A DNA stretch of 64,000 bases from contig OZ242320.1 in assembly GCA_965208125.1 (NCBI GenBank), positions 1,344,001-1,408,000 on the forward strand, given 5' to 3'. The position numbers were made by a program, and so were the translations under genes. Below, piece by piece: positions 12,193-26,510 of this stretch (its first letter is position 1; every line of letters starts with the position of its first letter). The notes beneath the pieces are model-generated. The model was not told the DNA's origin, searched no databases, and worked only from the letters and a program-made list of their open reading frames with translations. The DNA comes from Candidatus Latescibacterota bacterium. GTDB lineage: Bacteria; Latescibacterota; UBA2968.

Positions 12193-13564
12193 CCCCAAAA
12201 ATCCGATCCACGGTATCCACCGCCTGCACAATACAATCGGGAATCGCCGACCCGCGATACGCACTCCCCGTCAAAAACAACCCGCCCACCTGCGCGGCGA
12301 GACGCTCCATTTCGGCCACGCGCTCCAGATGCCCCACATCGAACTGGGGGCGCCCTCTTCTCCAGCGAAAAACGCGTGCAAACAGAGGATCAGCCGTCAC
12401 CCCCATCAAATCCTCCAATTCCTCGCGCGACAGTGCAATCAGCGCCTCATCATCCAGATCCACCAGATCTTCCTGTCCTGTCCCCCCCACAAATGTACGC
12501 ACCAGAACCCCATCGTCCGGCGCGCGAAAATTCAGCTTTGTCGAAACCCATGTACACGCCGTAATCCGGCGCCCCTCGTGTTTTGGCGACAAAAAACCAA
12601 ACCCCTCAAAATCGTGTTGTCCCTCAACATCTCTCTTCCGATACGCCAGCGAAACCGTCGCCGTTGAAACATAGCGAATACCGCCCAACAAAAGACTCAA
12701 ATCCGGCGCAAAATCAGCCACCAGATCAGCAGACACATAAGCCGGCGTCGCCATCACCACGGCATCTGTCTCGATCACCTCCTCCCCTGCAACCACCTCA
12801 AATCCCCCACCCACCTTTCTAACAGACCCAACCGCAACACCCCGGCGCACATCCCCATCCAAACCCGCGACCAGAGCATCGACCAACTCACCCATTCCCC
12901 CAATCAGCGTCTGAAACATCGCAGTTCCCGTAGATGCGCGCGTCTTCCTCATCGCCCGCACCCCCTTAATCAAACTCCCATAGCGCTGCTCCATCGCCAC
13001 ATACATCGGAAACGCACACCGCATACTCAAACGCTCTGCATCCGCACTGTGGATACCCGCCAGCATCGCCCCGCCAATATTCACAGCCTCCCTGCCCAAA
13101 CGCCGCCGAATAAAACTCGCCAGACTCTCATCGTCCTCGTCCCGCCGCCGCGGAACAAACACCTCCAGCCCCATCCTCACCTTCCCAGAAAACGAAAACA
13201 GTGGCGACCTCACAAGAGGCCAGAACCTCGAAGGCACCAGTGAAAAATCCTCCGGAAAAGCCACCAACTTCCCATCCCGCACCAAAAACGTCCGCTGCCG
13301 ATCATTATTCGTCGAAATCAGCCGATCTGCCAACCCCAGATCCCTACACAACTGAATACCCGCGGGCTTTTGCGTCAGCAGCAAATCCGGACCGCCCTCA
13401 ATCAAAAAACCATCCACGGACTCCGTCGCAATCATTCCCCCCCACCGGTCACTGCGCTCCAGCAACACATACTGGACATCGCGCCCTTGTTCTCTCGCTC
13501 TTTCTTCCAAATAAAAAGCGGTCGCAAGACCCGCTATGCCACCGCCAATAATAGTTATATGCAT
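12173..13564 (-). CDS. hemY: Copro/protoporphyrinogen oxidase HemY (CgoX/PgoX)
   Basis: GGGIAGL FAD motif, EGGPD, GFGFL; last gene of hemE-hemH-hemY. Confidence 0.93.
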   Translation of the reverse strand: MHITIIGGGIAGLATAFYLEERAREQGRDVQYVLLERSDRWGGMIATESVDGFLIEGGPDLLLTQKPAGIQLCRDLGLADRLISTNNDRQRTFLVRDGKLVAFPEDFSLVPSRFWPLVRSPLFSFSGKVRMGLEVFVPRRRDEDDESLASFIRRRLGREAVNIGGAMLAGIHSADAERLSMRCAFPMYVAMEQRYGSLIKGVRAMRKTRASTGTAMFQTLIGGMGELVDALVAGLDGDVRRGVAVGSVRKVGGGFEVVAGEEVIETDAVVMATPAYVSADLVADFAPDLSLLLGGIRYVSTATVSLAYRKRDVEGQHDFEGFGFLSPKHEGRRITACTWVSTKLNFRAPDDGVLVRTFVGGTGQEDLVDLDDEALIALSREELEDLMGVTADPLFARVFRWRRGRPQFDVGHLERVAEMERLAAQVGGLFLTGSAYRGSAIPDCIVQAVDTVDRIFGEVRSEK

Positions 13565-13576
13565 ATCGCTACCGGC

Positions 13577-13688
13577 GGGCGACCACAGGGGGTCGCCCCT
13601 ACAAAACGGATTAAAATATCACCGTAGGGGACGGCCCCTGTGCCGTCCCGATCTCCTCCAGCGGGCGACCACAGAGGGTCGCCCCTAC
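13577..13688. repeat. REP triplet A(-), B(+), A(-) (BIME-like)
   Basis: Copies at 13577-13602, 13624-13649 and 13663-13688. Confidence 0.9.
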
Positions 13689-13720
13689 ACATCTGCGTCC
13701 ATCTGCGAAAAACGCTCAAA

Positions 13721-14671
13721 TTATTCGCGTTTTTTTCTGCGGATCGCCTCTTCCACCGCATCGGCAACCGCCTCGATAAACACGGGATCGCTATTCATCA
13801 TCTCTGTGCGTTCCAGGCGAATCCCGCATCTTTGTGCAATCTCCTGGCAACCGATATCGATATCGTAAAGCACCTCAACGTGATCGCACACAAAACCAAT
13901 AGGCGCAACCAGAACATCGCGATAATTGCCAGAAGCCAGTGCCGGAATCACATCCTCAATCTGCGGACCCAACCACGGTTCGCCCGTATGTGCGGCACTC
14001 TGATATGAAAACATCCAATCCACTGGACCCAATCGATCCACAATCGCCTGTGCATTGCGCTTTAATTCATCGTCATAGGGATCGCCCATCTTCAGCAACC
14101 GGGCCGGCAAACTATGCGCCGAAAAAACCACCTTTGCCTTCCGCCTCACATCCTCTGGAAACTTCTCCAACCCCGCCCGTACCTTTGCCGCCTGCGCCTC
14201 GATCAACCGGGGCTGATCGCACCACGAATTGACATAGACAAACTCAATATCACTCCCCACCTCTTTTAATGCATCTTCAACCTTCTGCTGATAGAGCCAG
14301 ATACTCATCCGCGAATAATGCGGTGCCATCACAATGCCCACGGCCTTTTCAACACCATCCGCCTGCATCTTCGCCACCGCCTCCACAATCCGCGGCTTCC
14401 AGTGACGCATCCCCGTATATGCCTGCACATTTCGCCCGCGCTTCTTCAACACCGCCTCAACATGCCCTGCCTGCTCAAACGTGCGGTCATTCAGCGGCGA
14501 CTTGCCACCGATCTGCGCGTAGCGACTGCGAAATTCCGCAACAAATTCTGGCGACATCGGCCTCCCACCCCGAATATCGCTCAAATAAGCCGCCATATCG
14601 TCCAGCGAATCGGGGCTGCCATAAGCCATTAAAAGCACGCCAATTATTTTCTCATCGCGCCGTATATTCAT
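13721..14671 (-). CDS. hemH: Ferrochelatase (coproporphyrin ferrochelatase-like)
   Basis: LLMAYGSP, IGGKSPL, FSAHSLP, WLGP, GFVCDHVEVLYDID. Confidence 0.96.
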   Translation of the reverse strand: MNIRRDEKIIGVLLMAYGSPDSLDDMAAYLSDIRGGRPMSPEFVAEFRSRYAQIGGKSPLNDRTFEQAGHVEAVLKKRGRNVQAYTGMRHWKPRIVEAVAKMQADGVEKAVGIVMAPHYSRMSIWLYQQKVEDALKEVGSDIEFVYVNSWCDQPRLIEAQAAKVRAGLEKFPEDVRRKAKVVFSAHSLPARLLKMGDPYDDELKRNAQAIVDRLGPVDWMFSYQSAAHTGEPWLGPQIEDVIPALASGNYRDVLVAPIGFVCDHVEVLYDIDIGCQEIAQRCGIRLERTEMMNSDPVFIEAVADAVEEAIRRKKRE

Positions 14672-15695
14672 GCACAAAATCAACCAATCTCCGCACATTC
14701 TCCACAGGTGTGCGCTGTAAAATCCCATGCCCCAAATTAAAAATATGCCCCGGCTTTCCCCTCACCGAATCCAATATCCGCCTCGTCTGCCGCGTTATCT
14801 CCTCAAAAGGCGCGAACAACACAACGGGATCCAGATTGCCCTGCACACCCACATCATCGCCCAAACGACGCCACGCCACATCTATATCAATGCGCCAATC
14901 AACGCCAATAACATCGCCCCCCGCCTCTTTCAACAACTCGAGAATACCCGCCGTACCCGTACCAAAATGAATAAGCGGCACATCCACCTCTTCTTTCGCA
15001 ATCGCAATCGCCTTCTGCGAATGCGGCAACACGTACTCGCGATAATCAGCCGGACTCAACGCCCCGACCCAGCTATCAAACACCTGCAACACCCCGGCAC
15101 CCGCCCGGGCCTGCGCGATGAGATAATCCCCAATCGCCGTCGCCATCATATCCATCAAACGATGCCATTGCCCTGGCTCGCCGTACATCAACCCCTTGGC
15201 AATCTCGTAATTGCGCGACGAACCACCCTCCATCGCATAACAAACCAGCGTAAAAGGCGCACCTGCAAAACCGATCAACGGAACGCGACCATTGAGTTCT
15301 GCGACAGCCATCCGAATGGCATCACCCGCATAAGGCATAGCCTCTTCGGCGGGTCTCACAGTCAACGCATCGATATCTGCCACCGTGCGAATTGGATTGT
15401 GAATAACCGGACCCTCGCCCTTTACATAATCCAGATCCAAACCCATCGACTCGAGAATCGGCAGCAAATCCTGAAAAATAATCGCAGCATCCACAGGATA
15501 TGCATTCACAGGTTGCATCGTAATCGCCGTAGAGATCTCGGGTGTCTTCACCATATCGAGAAAACTGTAGTGATCGCGATACGTCCAATAAGCCTTCATA
15601 TACCGCCCGGCCTGACGCATAAACCAAACAGGCGTCGCATCTACACACTCGCGACGACACGCCTTTAAAAAACGATCTGAACCCTCACGCATCAT
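14652..15695 (-). CDS. hemE: Uroporphyrinogen decarboxylase
   Basis: PVWFMRQAGRY, GFAGAPFTL, QVFDSW, QGNLDP, FNLGHG. Confidence 0.98.
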   Translation of the reverse strand: MMREGSDRFLKACRRECVDATPVWFMRQAGRYMKAYWTYRDHYSFLDMVKTPEISTAITMQPVNAYPVDAAIIFQDLLPILESMGLDLDYVKGEGPVIHNPIRTVADIDALTVRPAEEAMPYAGDAIRMAVAELNGRVPLIGFAGAPFTLVCYAMEGGSSRNYEIAKGLMYGEPGQWHRLMDMMATAIGDYLIAQARAGAGVLQVFDSWVGALSPADYREYVLPHSQKAIAIAKEEVDVPLIHFGTGTAGILELLKEAGGDVIGVDWRIDIDVAWRRLGDDVGVQGNLDPVVLFAPFEEITRQTRRILDSVRGKPGHIFNLGHGILQRTPVENVRRLVDFVHEYTAR

Positions 15696-17277: not shown

Positions 17278-17378
17278 AGTTTTGACCTGTATTTTGTACG
17301 ACAAGAGCCGGGACGGCACAGGGGCCGTCCCCTACGGTAATATTGTGATTTGTAGGGGCGACCCCCTGTGGTCGCCCG
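17273..17378. repeat. glnA start region plus REP pair B(-)/A(+); template of the duplicated block
   Basis: Near-identical to 19572-19677 and, in part, 22133-22192. Confidence 0.9.
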
Positions 17379-17475
17379 CTTACCCTGAAACAGCACCGAA
17401 ATAATGTTCAAAACTTACGCTTAGTATATTTCCAGCAGATTTCATAAGTGTTTCGCCAATATTAAAAGCAATGGG

Positions 17476-17634
17476 ATTTATGCATAGAAAATTCATTTGT
17501 TGACCAGGGTATTTTTCCTTATTCTTCCTGCGTTTCGATTACAAACGTTTCTTATTGCTCCATAGTTTTAAAAAGAGCTTCTCAGAAAGAGGACACAGCT
17601 ATAGGGGCTTATTTTTCCAAGAGGGAGGACCATC
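17476..17634 (+). promoter_or_regulatory. Conserved promoter and 5' leader of Cache gene 1
   Basis: TTGTTG-N17-TATTCT (17497-17525) and GGGAGG RBS; repeated at about 20120-20281 and 22202-22364. Confidence 0.7.
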
Positions 17635-17637
17635 GTG

Positions 17638-19452
17638 ATGAAAACTCGAACATTACTCACTATTCCCATTGTCGGACTGCTCGTGCTGGCTGGCGTCTTT
17701 TCCAATACGCCTCCCGCCCTGGCGGAATGTGAACTCCCTCCCGGCGTGACGCCTCCTCCGGACCCGAGTGTGACGGCGCAACAGGTGGAAGACGGCAGTG
17801 CCAGCCTGATGGACTTCGCGCTGGCCGTGAGAGAACTAAATCTGGAGATTGGCCAATCAGAAGCGAGTGTGGAGAAGGTGTTGTACCTTGGATGTCTCGT
17901 CAGGCAAGAGGGAGGGCCTTACCGTTCCGGTTCCACCTACCTCGTGCAACTAACGCCCGACGGCAGGGTATTCGTTCACGCAAAGGACATGTCATTGTCG
18001 GGCAGGCTGCTCAACCCCTTGATTTATGCAGAGATCCTTGCTGCGCTGGGAGTATCCTTAACTGATCTGGCCGACCTGGCTTCTCCCGATCCTGCTACTG
18101 CCGCCCAGGCTTTCGCCGCCGTCATGAACACATTGATGCAAGCACCGGATGCCCCATTCGATGCGACCACCCCTATTCCAGGCTTTCGACCTGGCATACC
18201 GGGCGCCTCCGGCCATGCCGCCGTATATTTGTCGGCCAATTTCGGGCTCCCGATCGTGATGCTCGCCGGATTCGATCTCAACTTATCTCATGTAGCTGAA
18301 GAAGACATCGATTACGGCGACCCCACCATTACTGCCAGGGACGTGGTAGATCGAGAAACCCTGAAGGCCTTCGTCACGCAAGCGGGGGAGTTCATTCTCG
18401 CACACCAGAAGAGCGGCGATATAGCCGCTTCCTCGAAAGTCAGGATCGCCTTGCGGGATGAGAACGGACCCTGGCGACACGATTCTGTGTACCTCTACGT
18501 CCTGGATCTTACCAGCAACATCATCTTATTTCACGGCGCGTTTCCGGATAGATACGAACTGCGGCCTCTGGTGGCGACTATCCGGGACGTCGTTACCGGA
18601 GAGCTCATTCTGCCTCAGGTCATCGAAGCCGCAAAAAATAACCCGGAAGGCGGCTTCGTGGAATATTACTTCGACGATCCCGCTGACGACACTGACAGCG
18701 CCGACATCCCCAAGGTGGGATACGCCCGCGAGTTCAAAGGTGAATTCGAGACAGGCGGACGCGTAATCCCAATAGACCTCATCGTCGGATCGGGTTTCTA
18801 TGGGCGCGCACCCGTTGTCCCGGACGGTTCCTATACGGAAGTAGAAGCCACAGTCATAGGCGACGCCGTCGGGGGGTTGACCGTCGAATTTTCTCGATCC
18901 ATCGCAGGCCAACAGCCCGACTACGCCTATAGCGCTGTCACAGATGCTGCTGGCTATTTATCCCTCACCATCTCCAGCGCAGACGGGGTCAGTGGTTACT
19001 ATATAGCCCGTGCCCGCAACGCCGATGGCGAGATCGTTGGCCAGTGGCACAGCATTCCTCTCAATCGCAATCAACGCCAGGTCCTGGAACTGACCCTGGG
19101 CGGCGGTATGAAGGTCGTACGCGTCGAACCACTAACCGCGTCCAAGCCCGTGGCAGTATCCGAGACAGTACCAGAAGTTAGTGGACTGGCACCCAACTTT
19201 CCCAACCCATTCAACAGCGCCACTCTGATAACCTACCACCTGTCCAGTCCCGGTCCAGTGCAGCTGGTAATCTACAATGTGCTGGGTCAGCCGGTACGCA
19301 CGCTGGTGGATCGTTCCCAGGCCGCAGGCTCCTACCAGATTCGGTGGGATGTCCTCGACCAGCGGGGCGTCTCGTTGTCAACGGGGATCTATATCGCACG
19401 CCTGAGCTATCCCGGCGGAGTGCAGACGCAACGGCTGCTCTACCTCAAGTAG
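17638..19452 (+). CDS. Secreted Cache-domain protein with FlgD/T9SS-type C-terminal domain, copy 1
   Basis: Signal peptide (PPALA/E); Cache_2-like YLYVLD..ILFHG..RD..TG..EAAK..GGFVEYYF..PKVGYA; C-terminal NFPNPFN...IYNVLGQ.VRTL...GIYIARL. Confidence 0.85.
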   Translation: MKTRTLLTIPIVGLLVLAGVFSNTPPALAECELPPGVTPPPDPSVTAQQVEDGSASLMDFALAVRELNLEIGQSEASVEKVLYLGCLVRQEGGPYRSGSTYLVQLTPDGRVFVHAKDMSLSGRLLNPLIYAEILAALGVSLTDLADLASPDPATAAQAFAAVMNTLMQAPDAPFDATTPIPGFRPGIPGASGHAAVYLSANFGLPIVMLAGFDLNLSHVAEEDIDYGDPTITARDVVDRETLKAFVTQAGEFILAHQKSGDIAASSKVRIALRDENGPWRHDSVYLYVLDLTSNIILFHGAFPDRYELRPLVATIRDVVTGELILPQVIEAAKNNPEGGFVEYYFDDPADDTDSADIPKVGYAREFKGEFETGGRVIPIDLIVGSGFYGRAPVVPDGSYTEVEATVIGDAVGGLTVEFSRSIAGQQPDYAYSAVTDAAGYLSLTISSADGVSGYYIARARNADGEIVGQWHSIPLNRNQRQVLELTLGGGMKVVRVEPLTASKPVAVSETVPEVSGLAPNFPNPFNSATLITYHLSSPGPVQLVIYNVLGQPVRTLVDRSQAAGSYQIRWDVLDQRGVSLSTGIYIARLSYPGGVQTQRLLYLK

Positions 19453-19516
19453 CGCGTCGAACGGTTGGGTAAGACGCGTTTATCTGTCCATTCTACTCAA
19501 TTTTCTCATAACTAAG

Positions 19517-19552
19517 AAAAATGCCCCTGAAAATCCAAGGGCATTTTTTTTT
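19517..19552 (+). terminator. Intrinsic terminator after copy 1
   Basis: AAAAATGCCC...GGGCATTTTTTTTT. Confidence 0.85.
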
Positions 19553-19571
19553 GAGAAATCTGAAACAGCTA

Positions 19572-19677
19572 TTCATAGTTCTAACCTGTATTTTGTACGA
19601 CAAGAGCCGGGACGGCACAGGGGCCGTCCCCTACGGTAATATTGAGGTTTGTAGAGGCGACCCCCTGTGGTCGCCCG
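19572..19677. repeat. Duplicated glnA start stub plus REP pair
   Basis: Matches 17273-17378 with few substitutions. Confidence 0.9.
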
Positions 19678-19686
19678 TGCTTGTCC

Positions 19687-19926
19687 TCACAATAGCTTTA
19701 CCAGAGCAGCGACCACGCCAATAGCGACCACCATCATGGAACCCAGACGCAGGGTCAAGTCGTGCTTCAGACGCAACTCCAATTCTTTCAAATCCTGCTT
19801 CGTCGCCAATTTTTCGTCAATCAGTGCCGCCTGTGAACGCGCCAGCACCTCCGCCTGTTCTTCCGGCATACCCGCCTGGGTCAGTTCTTTTACGAAGGCG
19901 TGGGTATCGAAAATAATTGCTGCCAT
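19687..19926 (-). CDS. Small DUF1640/CCDC90-like coiled-coil protein with C-terminal TM helix
   Basis: FDTHAFVKELTQAGMPEEQAE, LATKQDL, hydrophobic tail; GGAG RBS. Confidence 0.85.
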   Translation of the reverse strand: MAAIIFDTHAFVKELTQAGMPEEQAEVLARSQAALIDEKLATKQDLKELELRLKHDLTLRLGSMMVVAIGVVAALVKLL

Positions 19927-20119
19927 CTAATTTTCTCCGGCGACGGGATAAACAGGTTTCAATTCGTCCAATATTGTTTCACGCACTCCCATTTTGCTCT
20001 TTTCATAAATATATGAAAAATCCTTTTCTGACACAATGTAAAGTCAGGAGATCTCTGCCCAACTTCAATACCAAATTGCCATCATCACATGCTTAAACAT
20101 GGCCTGCCTGTGCCCCTCA

Positions 20120-20281
20120 ATTTATGCATAGAAAATTCATTTGCTGACCAGGGTATTTTTCCTTATTCTTCCTGCGTTTCGATTACAAACGTTTCTTATT
20201 GCTCCATAGTTTTAAAAAGAGCTTCTCAGAAAGAGGACACAGCTATAGGGGCTTATTTTTCCAAGAGGGAGGACTATCCTG
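20120..20281 (+). promoter_or_regulatory. Conserved promoter and leader of Cache gene 2
   Basis: TTGCTG-N17-TATTCT; nearly identical to 17476-17634. Confidence 0.7.
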
Positions 20282-22066
20282 ATGAAAACTCGAACATTAT
20301 TCACATACAAAATTCCCGTTGTCGGACTGATCGTGCTGGCTGGCGTCTTTTCCAATGCGCCCCCCGCCCTGGCAGAATGTGAACTCCCTCCCGGCGTGAC
20401 GCCTCCTGCGGAACCGAGTGTGACGGCACAACAGGTGGAAGACGGCAGTGCTACCCTGAGGGACTTCGCGCTGGCCCTGAAAAATCATCCGGAGCTTAGC
20501 CAAATATCGGCGAGTTTGCATAGGCTGTTGCACCTGGGATGTCTCTTCAGGCAGGAGGGGGGGCCGTACCGTTCCGGTTCCACCTACATCGTGCAACTGA
20601 CGCCCGACGGCAGGCTATCCGCTCACGCAAAGAACATGTCCTTGTCGGGCCGGCTACTCAACCCCTTAATATATGGCGCGATCCTTCAAGCATTGGGAAT
20701 CAACCCAGCCGACCTCACCGACCGTGCTGCGGCCCTGGCCGCTTTCGCTGCCGCGGTAGCCGGGGATGGCGGCCCGTTCAATGTGCCCGATATCCCAGGG
20801 GCTTCCGGCTATGCCACCGCAATTATATCGCCCAGTTTCCAGACCCCGATCGTGCTGCTCGCGGGATTCGATCTCAACGAATCTCACGTAGTTGAAGAAG
20901 TCATCGATTACGGCGACCCGACCATTACCGCCAGGGACGTGGTAGATCGCGAAACCCTGAAGGCCTTCGTCACGCAAGCGGGGGAGCGGTTTATCGAAAT
21001 CCAGAAGACCGGCGATCCAGCCGCTTTCTATAAAGCCAGGAACGCCATGCGGGATCCGAATGGGCCCTGGAGACATGGTTCCGTGTACCTCTACATCCTG
21101 GATCTTACCAGCAACATCATCACGTTTCACGGTGCGTTTCCGGACAGATTCGAGCTCCGGCCTCTGATAGCCACTGTCCGAGACGTCGTTACTGGAGAGC
21201 TCATACTACCACAGGTCATCGAAGCGGCAAAAAGTAACCCGGAAGGCGGCTTCGTGGAGTATTACTTTGACGATCCCTCCGACGACACCGACAGCGCCGA
21301 CATCCCCAAGGTGGGATACGCACGCGAGTTCAAAGGTGAACTCATTTTAGGTGAACGCGTAGTCCCACTCCACTTCATCATTGGGTCGGGTTTTTATGGG
21401 CGTGATGATGTTGGCTCGACTGATCCCCGTACAGAAGTAGAAGCTACAGTCTCAGGCGACGCCGTCGAGGGATTAAACGTCGCGTTTGCTCGATCCATCG
21501 CCGGCCAACCAGCCGACTACGCCTATAACGCCGTCACAAATGCCAATGGCTCTTTGTCCCTCACCATCTCCAGCGCGGACGGGGTCAGTGGTTACTATCA
21601 GGCCCGCGCCCGCAACACCGATGGCGAAACCGTTGGCCAGTGGCACAGCATTCCCCTCAATCGCAATCAACGCCAGGTCCTGGAACTGACCCTGGGCGGC
21701 GGCATGAAGGTCGTACGCGTCGAACCACTAACCGCAGCCAAGCCAGTGGTCGCAACCGAGCCCGTGTTATCAGCCGAGACAGTGCCGGAAGTTAGTGGTC
21801 TGGCACCCAACTTTCCCAACCCATTCAACAGCGCCACCCTGATTACCTACCACCTGTCCAGTCCCGGTCCGGTGCAACTGGTAATCTACAATGTGCTGGG
21901 GCAGCCAGTACGCACGTTGGTGGATCAATCCCAGGCCGCAGGCTCCTATCAGGTTCGGTGGGATGTCCTCGATCAGCGGGGCGTCTCGCTATCGACGGGG
22001 GTCTATATCGCACGCCTGAGCTATCCCGGTGGGGTACAGACGCAACGGCTGCTCTACCTCAAGTAG
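20282..22066 (+). CDS. Secreted Cache-domain protein, copy 2
   Basis: Same architecture as copy 1, with a different and shorter insert in the N-terminal domain. Confidence 0.85.
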   Translation: MKTRTLFTYKIPVVGLIVLAGVFSNAPPALAECELPPGVTPPAEPSVTAQQVEDGSATLRDFALALKNHPELSQISASLHRLLHLGCLFRQEGGPYRSGSTYIVQLTPDGRLSAHAKNMSLSGRLLNPLIYGAILQALGINPADLTDRAAALAAFAAAVAGDGGPFNVPDIPGASGYATAIISPSFQTPIVLLAGFDLNESHVVEEVIDYGDPTITARDVVDRETLKAFVTQAGERFIEIQKTGDPAAFYKARNAMRDPNGPWRHGSVYLYILDLTSNIITFHGAFPDRFELRPLIATVRDVVTGELILPQVIEAAKSNPEGGFVEYYFDDPSDDTDSADIPKVGYAREFKGELILGERVVPLHFIIGSGFYGRDDVGSTDPRTEVEATVSGDAVEGLNVAFARSIAGQPADYAYNAVTNANGSLSLTISSADGVSGYYQARARNTDGETVGQWHSIPLNRNQRQVLELTLGGGMKVVRVEPLTAAKPVVATEPVLSAETVPEVSGLAPNFPNPFNSATLITYHLSSPGPVQLVIYNVLGQPVRTLVDQSQAAGSYQVRWDVLDQRGVSLSTGVYIARLSYPGGVQTQRLLYLK

Positions 22067-22078
22067 CACCGAGCTAAG

Positions 22079-22112
22079 AAAAATGCCCCTGAAAATCCAG
22101 GGGCATTTTTTT
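22079..22112 (+). terminator. Intrinsic terminator after copy 2
   Basis: AAAAATGCCCCTG...CAGGGGCATTTTTTT. Confidence 0.85.
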
Positions 22113-22132
22113 ATGAGAACCTGAAACAGCTA

Positions 22133-22192
22133 TTCATAGTTCTGACCTGTATTTTGTACGACAGGAGCCGGGACGGCACAGGGGCCGTCCCC
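22133..22192. repeat. Third glnA stub with truncated REP
   Basis: Matches 17273 onward, then breaks at GTCCCC and joins GCCCCTCAATTTATG. Confidence 0.85.
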
Positions 22193-22201
22193 AGCCCCTC
22201 A

Positions 22202-22364
22202 ATTTATGGATAGAAAACTTATTGGCTTACCAGGGTATTTTTTATTATTCTTTGCCGCACTTCGGTTACAAACGTTTCTTATTGCTCCATAGTTTTAAAA
22301 AGAGCTTCTCAGAAAGAGTACACAACTATAGGGGCTTATTTTTCCAAGAGGGAGGACCATCGCG
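22202..22364 (+). promoter_or_regulatory. Conserved but more diverged promoter and leader of Cache genes 3-4
   Basis: Homologous to the other two leaders. Confidence 0.65.
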
Positions 22365-24212
22365 ATGAAAACCCGAACATCACTCACATACATGATTCCT
22401 GTTGTCGGACTGCTCGTGTTGGCCGGCGTCTTTTCCAATGCGCCTCCCGCCCTGGCAGATTGTCCACTCCCCGCTGGCGTGACGCCGCCTGAGGATCCGC
22501 GCGTTACTGCCCAGCAGGTGGAAGACGGCAGCGCTACCCTGAGGGACTTCGCGCTGGCCGTGAGAGATCGATATAAGACCCCGATAAGCACTCTGGAAGG
22601 AGCACTATACTTTCAATGTCTCGTCAGGCAGGAGGGGAGTTCTTATCGTTCCGGTTCCACCTACCTCGTGCAACTGACGCCCGACGGCAGGGTGTACGAA
22701 CACGCGAAGTCCATGGCATTGTCGGGCAGACTACTCAACCCCTTGATTTATGCAGAGATCCTTTCTGCGCTGGGCGTCTCCCCAACCGTTCTGGCCGACC
22801 TATCTTCTCCCGATCCTGCTATCGCCGCCCAGGCTGGCGCCGCCGTCTTTAACACATTATCTCAAGAACCGGATGCCGCATTCGATGCGACCACCCCTAT
22901 TCCAGGCCTGCGACCTGGCATACCAGGTGCCTCCGGCCATGCCGCCGTATTTTTGTTGGGCGATTCAGGGCTCCCGATCCTGCTGCTCACCGGGTTCGAT
23001 CTCAGTGAGTCTCACTTGGTTCCCATTAGCGATGAAGCAATCGATTACGGCGACCCGGCCGTTACTGCCAGGGACGTAGTAGATCGCGAAACCTTGAAGG
23101 CCTTCGTCACGGAAGCAGGTGAGTACTTTATCGCAATCCAGGAGAATGCCACCAGTCCATCCGATATCGCGAAACTCAGGATCGCCGCGCGCGATCCGAA
23201 CGGGCCCTGGAGACACGGTCCCGTGTATCTCTACGTCCTGGATCTTACCAGCAACATCATCCTGTTTCACGGCGCGTTTCCGGACAGATTCGAGTGGCTA
23301 CCTCTGGTGGCGACCGTCCGAGACGAGGTTACCGGATGGCTCATTCTGCCTCAGGTCATCGAGGCGGCGAAGAGTAGTCCGGAAGGCGGCTTCGTGGAAT
23401 ATTACTTCGACGATCCCAACGACGACACAGACAGCGCCGACATCCCCAAGGTGGGATACGCACGCGAGTTCACTACTACAGTCGGGAGGCCTGACGGAAC
23501 CGCATTCACACTAAACCTCGTCATTGGGTCGGGTTATTATGGGCGTGCGCCCGATGGTGTCTCGACTGACCCCCGCACAGAAGTGGAAGTCACAGTTATG
23601 GGCGACGCCATCGAGGGATTGACCGTCGAATTTGCTCGATCCATCGCTGGCCAACAGCCCGACTACGCCTATAACGCTGTCACCGATGCCAATGGCTCTT
23701 TGTCCCTCACCATCTCCAGCGCGAATGGGGTAAGCGGTTACTATACAGCCCGCGCCCGCAACGCCGCTGGCGAAATCGTCGGCCAATGGCACAGCATTCC
23801 CCTCAATCACAATCAACGCCAGGTCCTGGAACTGACCCTGGGCGGCGGCATGAAGGTCGTACGCGTCGAACCACTGGCCGCAGCCAAGCCAGTGGTCGCA
23901 ACCGAGCCCGTGTTATCAGCCGAGACAGTGCCAGAAGTTAGTGGACTGGCGCCCAACTTTCCCAACCCATTCAACAGCGCCACCCTGATAACCTACCACC
24001 TGTCCAGTCCCGGTCCGGTGCAACTGGTAATCTACAATGTGCTGGGTCAGCCGGTACGCACATTGGTGGATCAATCCCAGGCCGCAGGCTCCTATCAGGT
24101 TCGGTGGGATGTCCTCGATCAGCGGGGCGTCTCGCTATCGACGGGGGTCTATATCGCACGCCTGAGCTATCCTAACGGAGTGCAGACCCAACGGCTACTC
24201 TACCTCAAGTAG
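22365..24212 (+). CDS. Secreted Cache-domain protein, copy 3
   Basis: Same architecture as copy 1. Confidence 0.85.
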   Translation: MKTRTSLTYMIPVVGLLVLAGVFSNAPPALADCPLPAGVTPPEDPRVTAQQVEDGSATLRDFALAVRDRYKTPISTLEGALYFQCLVRQEGSSYRSGSTYLVQLTPDGRVYEHAKSMALSGRLLNPLIYAEILSALGVSPTVLADLSSPDPAIAAQAGAAVFNTLSQEPDAAFDATTPIPGLRPGIPGASGHAAVFLLGDSGLPILLLTGFDLSESHLVPISDEAIDYGDPAVTARDVVDRETLKAFVTEAGEYFIAIQENATSPSDIAKLRIAARDPNGPWRHGPVYLYVLDLTSNIILFHGAFPDRFEWLPLVATVRDEVTGWLILPQVIEAAKSSPEGGFVEYYFDDPNDDTDSADIPKVGYAREFTTTVGRPDGTAFTLNLVIGSGYYGRAPDGVSTDPRTEVEVTVMGDAIEGLTVEFARSIAGQQPDYAYNAVTDANGSLSLTISSANGVSGYYTARARNAAGEIVGQWHSIPLNHNQRQVLELTLGGGMKVVRVEPLAAAKPVVATEPVLSAETVPEVSGLAPNFPNPFNSATLITYHLSSPGPVQLVIYNVLGQPVRTLVDQSQAAGSYQVRWDVLDQRGVSLSTGVYIARLSYPNGVQTQRLLYLK

Positions 24213-24241
24213 CACCAATTTCTTTGAGAAGGAGAACCATC

Positions 24242-26059
24242 GTGTTGAAAACTCGAACATTACTCACTATTCCCGTTGTTGGACTGCTCGTGCTGGCTGG
24301 CGTCTTTTCCAATGCGCCCCCCGCCCTGGCAGAATGTGAACTCCCTCCCGGCGTGACGCCTCCTCCGGATCCGCGTGTGACGGCGCAACAGGTGGAAGAT
24401 GGCAGCGGTAGCCTGAAGGACTTCGCGCTGGCCGCGAGGGAACGATTTGGTATTGAGACCCAGACAATTGCGACTCTGGAACAAGTGTTATACTCTGCAT
24501 GTCTCCTCAGACAAGAGGGGAGTCCCTGGCGTTCCGGTTCCACTTACCTCGTGTCACTGCTGCCCGACGGCAGGGTGTTGATTCACGCGAAATCCATGGC
24601 ATTGTCGGGCAGACTGCTCAACCCCTTGATTTATGCAGAGATCCTTTCTGCGCTGGGCGTCGAACTAACTGATCTGATCAACCTATCTTCTCCCGATCCT
24701 GCTATCGCCGCCCAGGCTGGCGCCGCCGTCTTTAACACATTGTCGCAAGAACCGGATGCCGCATTCGATGCGACCAGCCCTATTCCAGGCCTGCGACCTG
24801 GCATACCAGGTGCCTCCGGCTATGCCGCCGTATATGTGTCGGTCAATTTTGGGTCCCCGATTGTGCTGCTCGCCGGGTTCGATCTCAATGAAACTCACCT
24901 GGTCGAAGAAGACATCGATTACGGCGACCCGACCACTACTGCCAGGGACGTAGTAGATCGCGAAACCCTGAAGGCCTTTGTCACGGAAGCGGGGGAGTAC
25001 TTTCTCGCATTTCAGGAGGCTGGCGATTTCGCCGGCTCGTGGAAAGCCAGGACCGCCTTGCGGGATCCAAGCGGACCCTGGAGACACGGTTCCGTGTACC
25101 TCTACATCCTGGATCTTACCAGCAACATCATCTTATTTCACGGCGCGTTTCCCAACAGATACGAGCTGCGGCCTCTGGTTGCGACTGTCCGGGACGTCGT
25201 TACTGGAGAGCTCATTCTGCCTCAAGTCATCGAGGCGGCAAAAAATAACCCGGAAGGCGGCTTCGTGGAATATTACTTCGACGATCCCACTGACGACACA
25301 GACAGCGCCGACATCCCCAAGGTGGGATACGCACGCGAGTTCACAAGTGAAATCCGGGTAGGCGGACGCGTACTCCCGTTCAACTACATCGTCGGGTCGG
25401 GTTTTTATGGGCGCGATGATGTTGTCTCGACCGATCCTCGTACAGAAGTAGAAGCCACGGTCCTGGGCAACGCCGTTGAGGGATTGACCGTCGCGTTTGC
25501 GCGATCCATCGCAGGCCAACAGCCCGACTACGCCTATAACGCTGTCACAGATGCCAATGGCTCTTTGTCCCTCACCATCTCCAACCCAGATGGGGTGAGC
25601 GGTTACTATCAGGCACGCGCCCACAACGCCGATGGCGAAACCGTTGGCCAGTGGCACAGCATTCCCCTCAATCGCAATCAACGCCAGGTCCTGGAACTGA
25701 CCCTGGGCGGCGGTATGAAGGTCGTACGCGTCGAACCACTAACCGCGTCCAAGCCCGTGGCAGTATCCGAGACAGTGCCAGAAGTTAGTGGACTGGCGCC
25801 CAACTTTCCCAACCCATTCAACAGCGCCACCCTGATAACCTACCACCTGTCCAGCCCCGGTCCAGTGCAATTGGTGATCTACAATGTGCTGGGGCAGCCA
25901 GTACGCACGTTGGTGGATCAATCCCAGGCCGCAGGCTCCTATCAGATTCGGTGGGATGTCCTCGATCAGCGGGGCGTCTCGCTATCGACGGGGGTCTATA
26001 TCGCACGCCTGAGCTATCCCGGCGGAGTGCAGACCCAACGGCTGCTCTACCTCAAGTAG
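24242..26059 (+). CDS. Secreted Cache-domain protein, copy 4 (GTG/TTG start)
   Basis: Same architecture; AGGAG RBS; begins 29 bp after copy 3 with no promoter block of its own. Confidence 0.85.
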   Translation: MLKTRTLLTIPVVGLLVLAGVFSNAPPALAECELPPGVTPPPDPRVTAQQVEDGSGSLKDFALAARERFGIETQTIATLEQVLYSACLLRQEGSPWRSGSTYLVSLLPDGRVLIHAKSMALSGRLLNPLIYAEILSALGVELTDLINLSSPDPAIAAQAGAAVFNTLSQEPDAAFDATSPIPGLRPGIPGASGYAAVYVSVNFGSPIVLLAGFDLNETHLVEEDIDYGDPTTTARDVVDRETLKAFVTEAGEYFLAFQEAGDFAGSWKARTALRDPSGPWRHGSVYLYILDLTSNIILFHGAFPNRYELRPLVATVRDVVTGELILPQVIEAAKNNPEGGFVEYYFDDPTDDTDSADIPKVGYAREFTSEIRVGGRVLPFNYIVGSGFYGRDDVVSTDPRTEVEATVLGNAVEGLTVAFARSIAGQQPDYAYNAVTDANGSLSLTISNPDGVSGYYQARAHNADGETVGQWHSIPLNRNQRQVLELTLGGGMKVVRVEPLTASKPVAVSETVPEVSGLAPNFPNPFNSATLITYHLSSPGPVQLVIYNVLGQPVRTLVDQSQAAGSYQIRWDVLDQRGVSLSTGVYIARLSYPGGVQTQRLLYLK

Positions 26060-26068
26060 CACCGAACG

Positions 26069-26101
26069 AAGAAAGCCCCTGAAAATTCAGGGGCTTTCTT
26101 T
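26069..26101 (+). terminator. Intrinsic terminator after copy 4
   Basis: AAGAAAGCCCCTGAA-AA-TTCAGGGGCTTTCTTT. Confidence 0.9.
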
Positions 26102-26326
26102 GTGAGAAATCTAAAACAGCTATGCTACACCTCGTCTTTTGTGAGCCTATTCAAATATTTATACGTATAACCCGTTATTTTTAATAAAAATAAAAAAATC
26201 CTTAAAGAAATATCCCAGACCGAGTTTTATACCAATTAGACGGTATATCGTCCAATATTTCGACCAATGGATGAAATATAATCCTCAGACTATATTTTGT
26301 CACCATTTATAATCCGTTTAACCATG

Positions 26327-26360
26327 AAAAAAGGGGTTATGCAATAAAAGCATAACCCCT
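26327..26360 (-). terminator. Hairpin/terminator 3' of tRNA-Pro
   Basis: AGGGGTTATGC-N7-GCATAACCCCT with a T-tract on the minus strand. Confidence 0.8.
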
Positions 26361-26369
26361 GTCTTATTA

Positions 26370-26446
26370 TGGTCGGAGCGACTGGATTTGAACCAGCGAC
26401 CCCCATCACCCCAAGATGGTGCGCTACCGAGCTGCGCTACGCTCCG
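26370..26446 (-). tRNA. tRNA-Pro(GGG)
   Basis: Reverse complement CGGAGCGTAGCGCAGCTCGGTAGCGCA-CCATC-TTGGGGT-GATGG-GGGTCGCTGGTTCAAATCCAGTCGCTCCGACCA: 77-nt cloverleaf with encoded CCA. Confidence 0.97.
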
Positions 26447-26510
26447 ACAACTCGTTCGAGAATGAATTTACCCATTTTGTTAGAGACCGTCAATATTAAA
26501 GGCATTCAGC

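Follow-up and report, generated by a model that had tools for sequence, protein, structure and literature searches.

Tandem Cache-like heads on putative surface proteins of a Latescibacterota bacterium: a sensor-type fold without a signaling part

The usual setting of an sCache_2 domain is between two transmembrane (TM) helices, with a cytoplasmic output domain, and the proteins described here do not match it. They are encoded by an array of four paralogous genes (positions 17635-26059, + strand) in a 64,000-nucleotide (nt) stretch of the genome of Candidatus Latescibacterota bacterium (contig OZ242320.1, positions 1,344,001 to 1,408,000), which we refer to as the window, and the question they raise is what a sensor-type fold does in exported proteins that carry no signaling part. 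We consider it fairly probable that the array encodes surface-displayed, horizontally shared tandem-Cache binding proteins with a conserved carboxylate-type pocket.

The array comprises four intact open reading frames (ORFs) of 594-615 amino acids (aa), in which paralogs B to D are 79-83% identical to paralog A and the mean column identity is 85%. Residue numbers throughout are those of paralog D, counted from window position 24245. Each protein opens with a signal peptide, read from the sequence by eye, that combines a K/R n-region, a hydrophobic window of 1.87-1.95 at residues 3-13, and ALA before E/D-C; in D it covers residues 1-29 (24245..24331, +) and ends in ALA before E-C. Two cysteines, C31 and C86, show a conservation of at least 90%. 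Two units then form the head of the protein: unit 1 at residues 45-216 (24377..24892, +), a diverged Cache-like unit with a helical insert, and unit 2 at residues 228-388 (24926..25408, +). The two are internally homologous, with an hhalign probability of 95.9% over 69 columns at 32% identity. The next domain, at residues 399-498 (25439..25738, +), contains strands only, draws immunoglobulin (Ig)-like matches in Foldseek and a weak Big_1 match (E 0.014), and is best described as an Ig-like beta-sandwich spacer. The protein ends in a C-terminal domain (CTD) of the type A class used for sorting by the type IX secretion system (T9SS), identified by TIGR04183 in all four paralogs at 42.3-44.1 bits against a cutoff of 23; in D, with 42.3 bits, it occupies residues 528-604 (25826..26056, +).

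No output domain was found in the four paralogs by Pfam or NCBIfam, and Pfam found no PF03797 beta-barrel in them. Hydropathy likewise gave no TM helix past the signal peptide, the sole other Kyte-Doolittle window of at least 1.6 lying near residue 194, in a segment modeled as a beta-hairpin. A preliminary description of the window had proposed this layout, namely four paralogs, each with a signal peptide, two related units, a beta-rich linker, and an NFPNPFN-type terminal domain, with neither a TM helix nor an output domain, and every one of these elements stands. Among the profile models that it had named for checking, TIGR04183 and FlgD_ig score above cutoff (the latter at 30.8 bits against 27 in paralog A), and the Cache models fall below theirs.

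The Cache identity of the head emerges from structural modeling. The full-length model reached a predicted local distance difference test score (pLDDT) of 78.5, and the head alone, folded with 57 cross-phylum sequences, reached a pLDDT of 89.3 and a predicted template-modeling score (pTM) of 0.87, values from which the two units, as modeled, form one rigid body. Modeled unit 2 has the sCache_2 layout, with a helix-loop-helix at the N terminus, a five-stranded antiparallel sheet, and short helices between strands 2 and 3. When compared by VIA-align, it matches 4K08 with a Z of 12.6 and a root-mean-square deviation (rmsd) of 3.3 over 135 of 144 residues, 4EXO with a Z of 12.5, and TlpB with a Z of 11.0; Foldseek retrieves 2QHK, 4EXO, 4K08, and 5G4Y at E 4.5e-4 to 6.7e-4, with a probability of 1.00 and a TM-score by target of 0.61-0.66. 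In the model, then, unit 2 is an sCache_2 fold, and the proposal that a Cache fold is exported here is borne out.

Unit 1 appears Cache-like from its internal homology and from the same order of helices and strands in the model, to which a helical insert is added. Each unit has its own helix pair in the model. In dCache domains, one long helix joins two modules in a distal/proximal arrangement; against dCache chains, VIA-align covers unit 2 only, and Foldseek covers both units at an rmsd of 11-15 Å and a TM-score of 0.16-0.28. A Foldseek search with the full-length model returned Ig-like and beta-sandwich matches only and was uninformative on the head, for which folding the head alone succeeded. 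Querying the PDB by sequence and by profile was of no use for the whole protein, the head, or unit 2, the last of which drew no match at all; a PorU tail at E 0.04 was set aside as not useful, and a match to Alr3790 with E of about 1 over 28 residues was taken as chance.

The likely binding site can be predicted from the best-described member of the fold. According to PMC5062169, the ligand carboxylate in PscD is hydrogen-bonded by Tyr90, His103, Tyr143, and Lys156 and flanked by a sandwich of Trp92 and Trp145, and high conservation within the family is noted for Tyr90, His103, and Lys156. In one relative, L031, there is an additional, canonical unit that aligns to 4EXO (E 2.5e-4), TlpB (1.4e-3), and 4K08 (0.034) on one side and to unit 2 (hhalign 99%) on the other. 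Because this unit bridges unit 2 to the PDB sCache_2 alignments, a tetrad can be predicted in D, spanning 25097..25321 (+) and consisting of Y285 (25097-25099), H299 (25139-25141), Y343 (25271-25273), and K359 (25319-25321), with F345 at the position of the second Trp. Within the same span lie F345 itself and a conserved acidic loop, DDPTDDTDSAD (25280-25312, +). Across the 57 sequences, which come from many phyla, no change occurs at H299, Y343, or K359 and Y285 reaches a conservation of at least 90%, and the tetrad residues are present in all six genomic copies of the family. Unit 1 keeps the first Tyr and the His only (Y101 and H114), without counterparts of Tyr-x-Trp or Lys. We read unit 2 as holding a conserved, predicted carboxylate-type pocket, and the acidic loop might hint at a cation or at positive charge on part of the ligand.

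The family extends far beyond this genome. A word-indexed search gave 1548 matches among 8000 scored candidates, the few that carry names being called "T9SS type A sorting domain-containing protein" or "hypothetical protein"; an exhaustive search of representatives gave 202 clusters at E ≤1e-30, some of them matched in as many as seven stretches; and 497 of 611 candidate stretches from species-representative genomes encode a relative. The maximum of seven stretches in the representative search occurs in a protein of 2142 aa. Full-length matches, with both units, the Ig-like domain, and the CTD, come from records labeled Latescibacterota, Gemmatimonadota, or uncultured bacterium, and the head alone, of about 390 aa and 52-77% identical to D, is found in records of Alpha- and Gammaproteobacteria, Binatia, Acidobacteriota, Thermodesulfobacteriota, Myxococcota, and Chloroflexota. 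Closed chromosomes bearing the head include ones labeled Alpha- and Gammaproteobacteria, Binatia, Terriglobia, and Thermodesulfobacteriota. In a head tree built by a quick method, the phylum labels are intermixed, requiring 32 changes against a minimum of 9.

What follows the head differs among lineages. Of 18 relatives from other phyla that were scanned, nine place a PF03797 autotransporter barrel behind it and one a T9SS tail, and the remainder have no Pfam family there or no tail. Some relatives appear free of any anchor, in frames of 388-425 aa (L052, L049, and L072), although for L049 the barrel lies in the next frame, as in a split gene. Two proteins of 1803 and 1886 aa, at L028 (9944-15355) and L030 (9671-15331), carry three full two-unit heads in series before an autotransporter barrel. 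The T9SS sorting domain here, taken together with the barrel on the same head elsewhere, points to surface display by means of a lineage-specific anchor.

The distribution is patchy at every level. Within the genus, 12 of 20 other genomes contain one to four full heads, and the eight that have none are 97-99% complete and assembled in one or two contigs; across the phylum, the head occurs in 40 of 168 genomes, which belong to 7 of the 49 genera and 3 of the 14 families. Relatives often have tandem arrays of two to six copies, and in some arrays copies are broken. Such damage (internal stops, split frames, or frameshifts) was seen at L016, L021, L023, and L033 and at G011, G030, G035, and G040, a pattern that fits gene birth and death. 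Some near-identical heads bear differing phylum labels, as in L017 and L019 (Latescibacterota and Gemmatimonadota) and in L045, L046, and L061 (Binatia and Thermodesulfobacteriota), which reflects either very recent transfer or inconsistent labels of metagenome-assembled genomes (MAGs). Among 107 flanking proteins at 27 loci of other phyla, no neighbor recurred, and integrases or a transposase lay near the head gene at 3 of the 27 loci. In the Acidobacteriota record L022, one small ORF separates the head gene from a 914-aa leucine-rich-repeat protein (12325-15069). Literature searches combining Cache, autotransporter, sponge, and symbiont, made at the level of paper listings, returned no description of the family, and no paper searched contained both "Cache domain" and "type IX secretion"; the suggestion that the architecture is undescribed agrees with this result.

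Within the genome, a 5.75-Mb single contig, the window's four copies are joined by two more at C1:2391281-2395212, so the count of four given in the preliminary description is right for the array and short for the genome, which has six close paralogs. Two shorter relatives of about 40% identity are also present. Beside the second locus, at C1:2396076-2396144, a fragment of 23 residues matches the sorting domain's end at 91% identity and is apparently what is left of a third copy.

The six copies have a mosaic history. Their heads fall at six separate places in the tree, and a single clade of the genome's own heads is rejected (delta log likelihood 683; approximately unbiased test, p-AU 0.0001), while the part made up of the Ig-like domain and CTD groups all six in one clade with a support of 94.5. 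For four copies, the best match in another genome exceeds that in their own: A, 82 versus 79; C, 80 versus 75; E, 91 versus 74; and F, 91 versus 73. For B and D, the best outside match is not closer than the match within the genome. Tails cluster by genome in other arrays too, and in L018 tail identity is 99% against 68% for the head. Nucleotide identity among the six copies follows the same profile, with values of 0.83-0.92 at the gene's 5' end, 0.64-0.91 across the head, and 0.85-0.97 over the final 600 nt. Separate head lineages, a single tail clade, and this identity profile together fit gene conversion of the gene ends, combined with long-lived head lineages and concerted evolution of the tail.

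Divergence within the head is concentrated in four blocks of paralog D, all on the + strand. In unit 1, block 1 (24434..24499, residues 64-85) covers the helix-loop-helix, with a ratio of nonsynonymous to synonymous change (omega) of 0.82 and a nucleotide identity of 0.64, and block 2 (24827..24856, residues 195-204) covers the beta4-beta5 hairpin, with an omega of 1.15 and a p of 0.21 for nonsynonymous excess. In unit 2, block 3 (24995..25060, residues 251-272) takes in the end of helix 1 and helix 2, with an omega of 0.71 and an identity of 0.67, and block 4 (25343..25393, residues 367-383) the long beta4-beta5 hairpin in its distal part, with an omega of 0.62 and an identity of 0.68. By secondary structure, the blocks sit at equivalent places in both units, and the tetrad is excluded from them. 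In the usual Cache orientation, the helix-loop-helix and the beta4-beta5 hairpin lie at the end remote from the point of attachment; by analogy, the variable blocks would face outward.

To obtain omega, nonsynonymous and synonymous changes were counted by parsimony on trees of 38 copies, all intact and full length (6 from this genome and 32 from related loci), with frameshifted or stop-containing copies excluded. Outside the blocks it is 0.19-0.38 in scaffold segments and 0.21 in the CTD, and a pairwise count over the six genomic copies agrees with this pattern. No block has a supported omega above 1, the best p being that of block 2, and per-site analysis gives 2 of 609 codons at a nominal p <0.05, below chance under the neutral null, with no evidence of positive selection. 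The variable blocks evolve near neutrality. The preliminary description had placed divergence in short hypervariable segments and had seen in them a diversified repertoire of ligand-binding proteins. The segments themselves are real, with identities of 0.64-0.68 against 0.90-0.97 in conserved stretches and the 3' third, and "hypervariable" overstates their rate, which is about neutral: omega in the blocks, at 0.62-1.15, is near 1 rather than well below it. The diversified repertoire is not supported: the tetrad, whose residues show no change or a conservation of at least 90% in 57 sequences, lies outside the blocks, and no block has an omega significantly above 1.

For export, the genome offers several candidate components of a type IX system. 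A frame of 2094 aa matches SprA_N at 98.9 bits against 27, a PorU-like frame of 1909 aa scores 265 + 80 bits, and 19 CTD-like hits occur genome-wide, 11 of them outside the tandem-Cache family. Export by the T9SS is likely but not established.

The data show the architecture, the unit 2 fold, the conserved pocket residues, the exchange of anchors, the mosaic genes, and the patchy occurrence; from them we infer surface tethering, the class of ligand, and any role in host association, as follows. The proteins would cross the inner membrane by means of the signal peptide and would presumably be exported, and probably tethered to the cell surface, through the type A sorting domain, the Ig-like domain acting as a spacer that lets the rigid tandem Cache-like head point outward. 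The pocket of unit 2 would most likely bind a carboxylate-bearing molecule, either free or built into a larger component of host or matrix, with a core binding chemistry common to all paralogs. The head would behave as a horizontally mobile module, which other phyla mount on an autotransporter barrel, and within this genome old and distinct head lineages sit between ends kept alike by recombination.

Several results weigh against this interpretation. No Pfam Cache model reaches its cutoff in the window proteins: dCache_2 scores 17.1-26.2 bits against 26.5 across all four (23.8 in A), and sCache_2 (PF17200) scores 12.2-16.1 against 25 in three and is unlisted for C. Unit 1 was not reached in the fold searches, in which unit 2 filled the match list. 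The mapping of the tetrad is transitive, through two alignments and a paper, rather than a superposition. Position 287, equivalent to Trp92, is variable, occupied by Tyr or by a small residue, and K359 is preceded by an acidic loop that has three additional residues and is modeled with low confidence; given the change at 287 and the longer acidic loop, the ligand may differ from C2/C3 acids. Blocks and tetrad were set apart by residue position, not by distance in the model, and the omega values come from a crude parsimony count on trees of recombining genes. On the side of export, the PorU-like frame lies below its 420-bit cutoff, PorP/SprF is marginal (22.7 against 22.3), GldK gives only partial matches (99.7 against 350 bits), and neither GldM nor GldL was found; the models were trained on Bacteroidota, and the control genomes contain no T9SS, so that these misses are uninformative. 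Cargo of the T9SS and passengers of autotransporters can also be released. Finally, taxon labels of draft MAGs may err, and near-identical genes are labeled both Gemmatimonadota and Latescibacterota.

Release is the core of one alternative, in which the proteins are free scavengers or signal-sequestering proteins, each paralog tuned to a different ligand. The Cache fold with its intact predicted pocket, the anchor-free frames of some relatives, and the persistence of distinct head lineages across genomes all speak for it. Tuning to different ligands, however, sits poorly with a tetrad that is identical in all lineages and lies outside blocks that lack a supported omega above 1, and release sits poorly with the sorting domain or barrel found behind the head in most relatives, with an Ig-like spacer that makes most sense in a tethered protein, and with the split gene that accounts for the anchor-free form at L049. 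We hold this explanation to be unlikely, and the earlier characterization of the proteins as secreted and membrane-free is kept in part: they are exported and have no membrane anchor of their own, while the sorting domain and the autotransporter barrel point to surface display over free release. Still less compatible with the data are extracytoplasmic co-sensors, that is, Cache proteins that bind a ligand and then dock on a membrane receptor as some periplasmic binding proteins do. A sensor-domain fold and a conserved pocket would suit them; the export tags, however, carry the protein past the outer membrane, and no kinase or chemoreceptor recurs beside the gene in the 27 loci, where the lone signaling-related neighbor is a sigma-54 activator at one locus. 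We regard co-sensing as very improbable.

The remaining alternative is an adhesin or recognition tag for an animal host, whose head would bind an acidic group of host cells or matrix, whose variable, outward-facing patches would be shaped by host or phage pressure, and which would have spread among co-resident symbionts by aiding their residence. Cross-phylum sharing at 52-77% identity, presence or absence within the genus (12 of 20), a copy number of 0-7, and pseudogenes are all consistent with it. Record titles of relatives contain the codes RHO, IRC, and COS, which match the initials of the sponges sampled in PMC8163846 and from which a sponge habitat may be read. PMC8163846 describes MAGs of Latescibacterota and Gemmatimonadota as well as sponge-enriched genes that were laterally transferred, and PMC7848895 reports Cache domains enriched in some sponge-associated Thaumarchaeota as candidates for host recognition. 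The habitat, however, derives from record names and not from accessions, and an omega near 1 equally fits relaxed constraint, the nominally selected codons being fewer than chance would give. As a full account, this seems to us rather unlikely. A bolder combination, which we offer as a speculation of low probability, would make the head a community-shared symbiosis factor: a surface tag that binds an acidic host-derived group through the conserved pocket of unit 2 and is passed among unrelated bacteria of the same animal host, each recipient supplying its own anchor (a T9SS tag, an autotransporter barrel, or another tail), with several old head lineages kept per genome for the differences in recognition given by their outward-facing patches, and homogenized ends serving as landing pads for the exchange of heads by recombination. 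Surface display of a binding head that carries no signaling part remains our preferred reading.

Comparison with known systems places this family between several of them. Its unit 2 shares its fold with the sCache_2 ligand-binding domains of chemoreceptors such as PscD (5G4Y/5G4Z), Adeh_3718 (4K08), and a methyl-accepting chemotaxis protein of Vibrio parahaemolyticus (4EXO/2QHK), and has the Tyr/His/Tyr/Lys set on the same strands. Unlike them, the focal proteins lack flanking TM helices and a cytoplasmic output and carry a T9SS tag instead; their head joins two tandem units in one rigid body, the Lys follows a loop that is longer and acidic, the beta4-beta5 hairpin is extended, and the Pfam score stays below cutoff. 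Closer at hand are two canonical cousins in the same genome, at C1:747519-749030 and 2707564-2709078 (L008 and L007), each with two sCache_2 units (110.5 and 78.6 bits against 25). These share with the focal proteins the order of parts, the tail, a TA-x-[DE]VVD-x-ETL-x-AFV helix motif, and about 40% identity. Both of their units are canonical, whereas focal unit 1 has lost Tyr-x-Trp and Lys and gained a helical insert, and in the searches made it is the focal family, not the cousins, that recurs across phyla.

Similarly, type A cargo of the Bacteroidota T9SS can carry an Ig-like domain before the CTD, in a gingipain-type layout, and the focal proteins resemble it in having a signal peptide, a functional head, an Ig-like spacer, and a type A CTD. 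They differ in that the head is a sensor-type binding fold rather than an enzyme or known adhesin, and in a host outside the Bacteroidota in which GldL and GldM were undetected. With type Va autotransporters, the common element is the head, which precedes PF03797 in the nine scanned relatives noted above, the window proteins themselves having no barrel; classical autotransporter passengers are beta-helices. Extracellular Cache domains of eukaryotes, as in the calcium-channel alpha2-delta subunit and Cachd1, also lie outside the cell without a bacterial-type output, and they appear in the fold lists as 7VFS_B and 8X90_B (Foldseek) and 8S7C_A (VIA-align, Z 8.4). They are distant in sequence and set in VWA-containing proteins, and descent from a common source with the focal family is without support here.

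If correct, our interpretation would make this family a case of the Cache fold used as surface cargo without signaling and a natural example of a module whose anchor is swapped across phyla. Should the predicted pocket be real, a simple ligand screen could reveal what is bound on the surface of these uncultured cells. Patchiness, multiple copies, and mosaic genes together suggest that the trait is accessory and under ecological selection, and the family tests T9SS-type sorting outside the Bacteroidota, in a genome with SprA in which the GldL/GldM motor was undetected.

At the level of individual genes, all on the + strand, paralog A (17635..19452, 605 aa) shows the complete order of signal peptide, tandem Cache-like head, Ig-like domain, and T9SS type A CTD (TIGR04183, 43.0 bits). 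Paralog B (20282..22066, 594 aa) has a helical insert in unit 1 that is 17 residues shorter, paralog C (22365..24212) has 615 aa, and paralog D (24224..26059) is listed with 611 aa, homology placing its start at GTG 24242 or TTG 24245. A diversity-generating retroelement target would call for a template repeat with a reverse transcriptase, and silent-cassette antigenic variation for promoterless donor copies; here all copies are full length. A conserved leader of about 160 nt precedes A (17475..17634, +), with a TTGACC box and a strong ribosome-binding site, GAGGGAGGA; by alignment, near-identical copies precede B (~20122-20281, +) and C (~22205-22364, +). Thus A, B, and C each have a leader of their own, and D, which starts 12 bp past the end of C and has none, is probably co-transcribed with C. 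The leader could be a duplicated promoter and 5' untranslated region or a regulatory RNA; it matched no Rfam family, and in a scan of 17300-26500 a tRNA alone exceeded the cutoff. Hairpins with a T-run lie 3' of A (19517..19548, +), 3' of B (22079-22112, near-identical to that of A), and 3' of D (26332-26360), and a promoter and terminator scan did no better than shuffles (10 against 5.9 ± 2.8; 8 against 8.7).

The spacer between A and B (19453-20281), at 830 bp, is far longer than the others (298 bp and 11 bp) and contains no related ORF; small indels occur within it in contigs of one DNA run (X4). In the DNA runs X2 and X4, contigs are fragmented with many joints between paralogs, as a repeated family would lead one to expect. 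In a single metatranscriptome library (X1), 12 contigs matched the array, none at ≥99% identity, six at 95-99%, and six at 90-95%, the longest alignment covering 588 nt with 33 differences on 24479-25066; such libraries may contain DNA and this one was read without a silent control stretch, so these matches give only a hint that close relatives of the array may be transcribed. A tRNA-Pro (GGG) lies on the - strand at 26370-26446, 310 bp past the last paralog. Judging by eye from translations, we take the flanks of the array to be housekeeping genes, those for glutamine synthetase, hemE, and hemH lying upstream and those for Mla-like ABC transport lying downstream.

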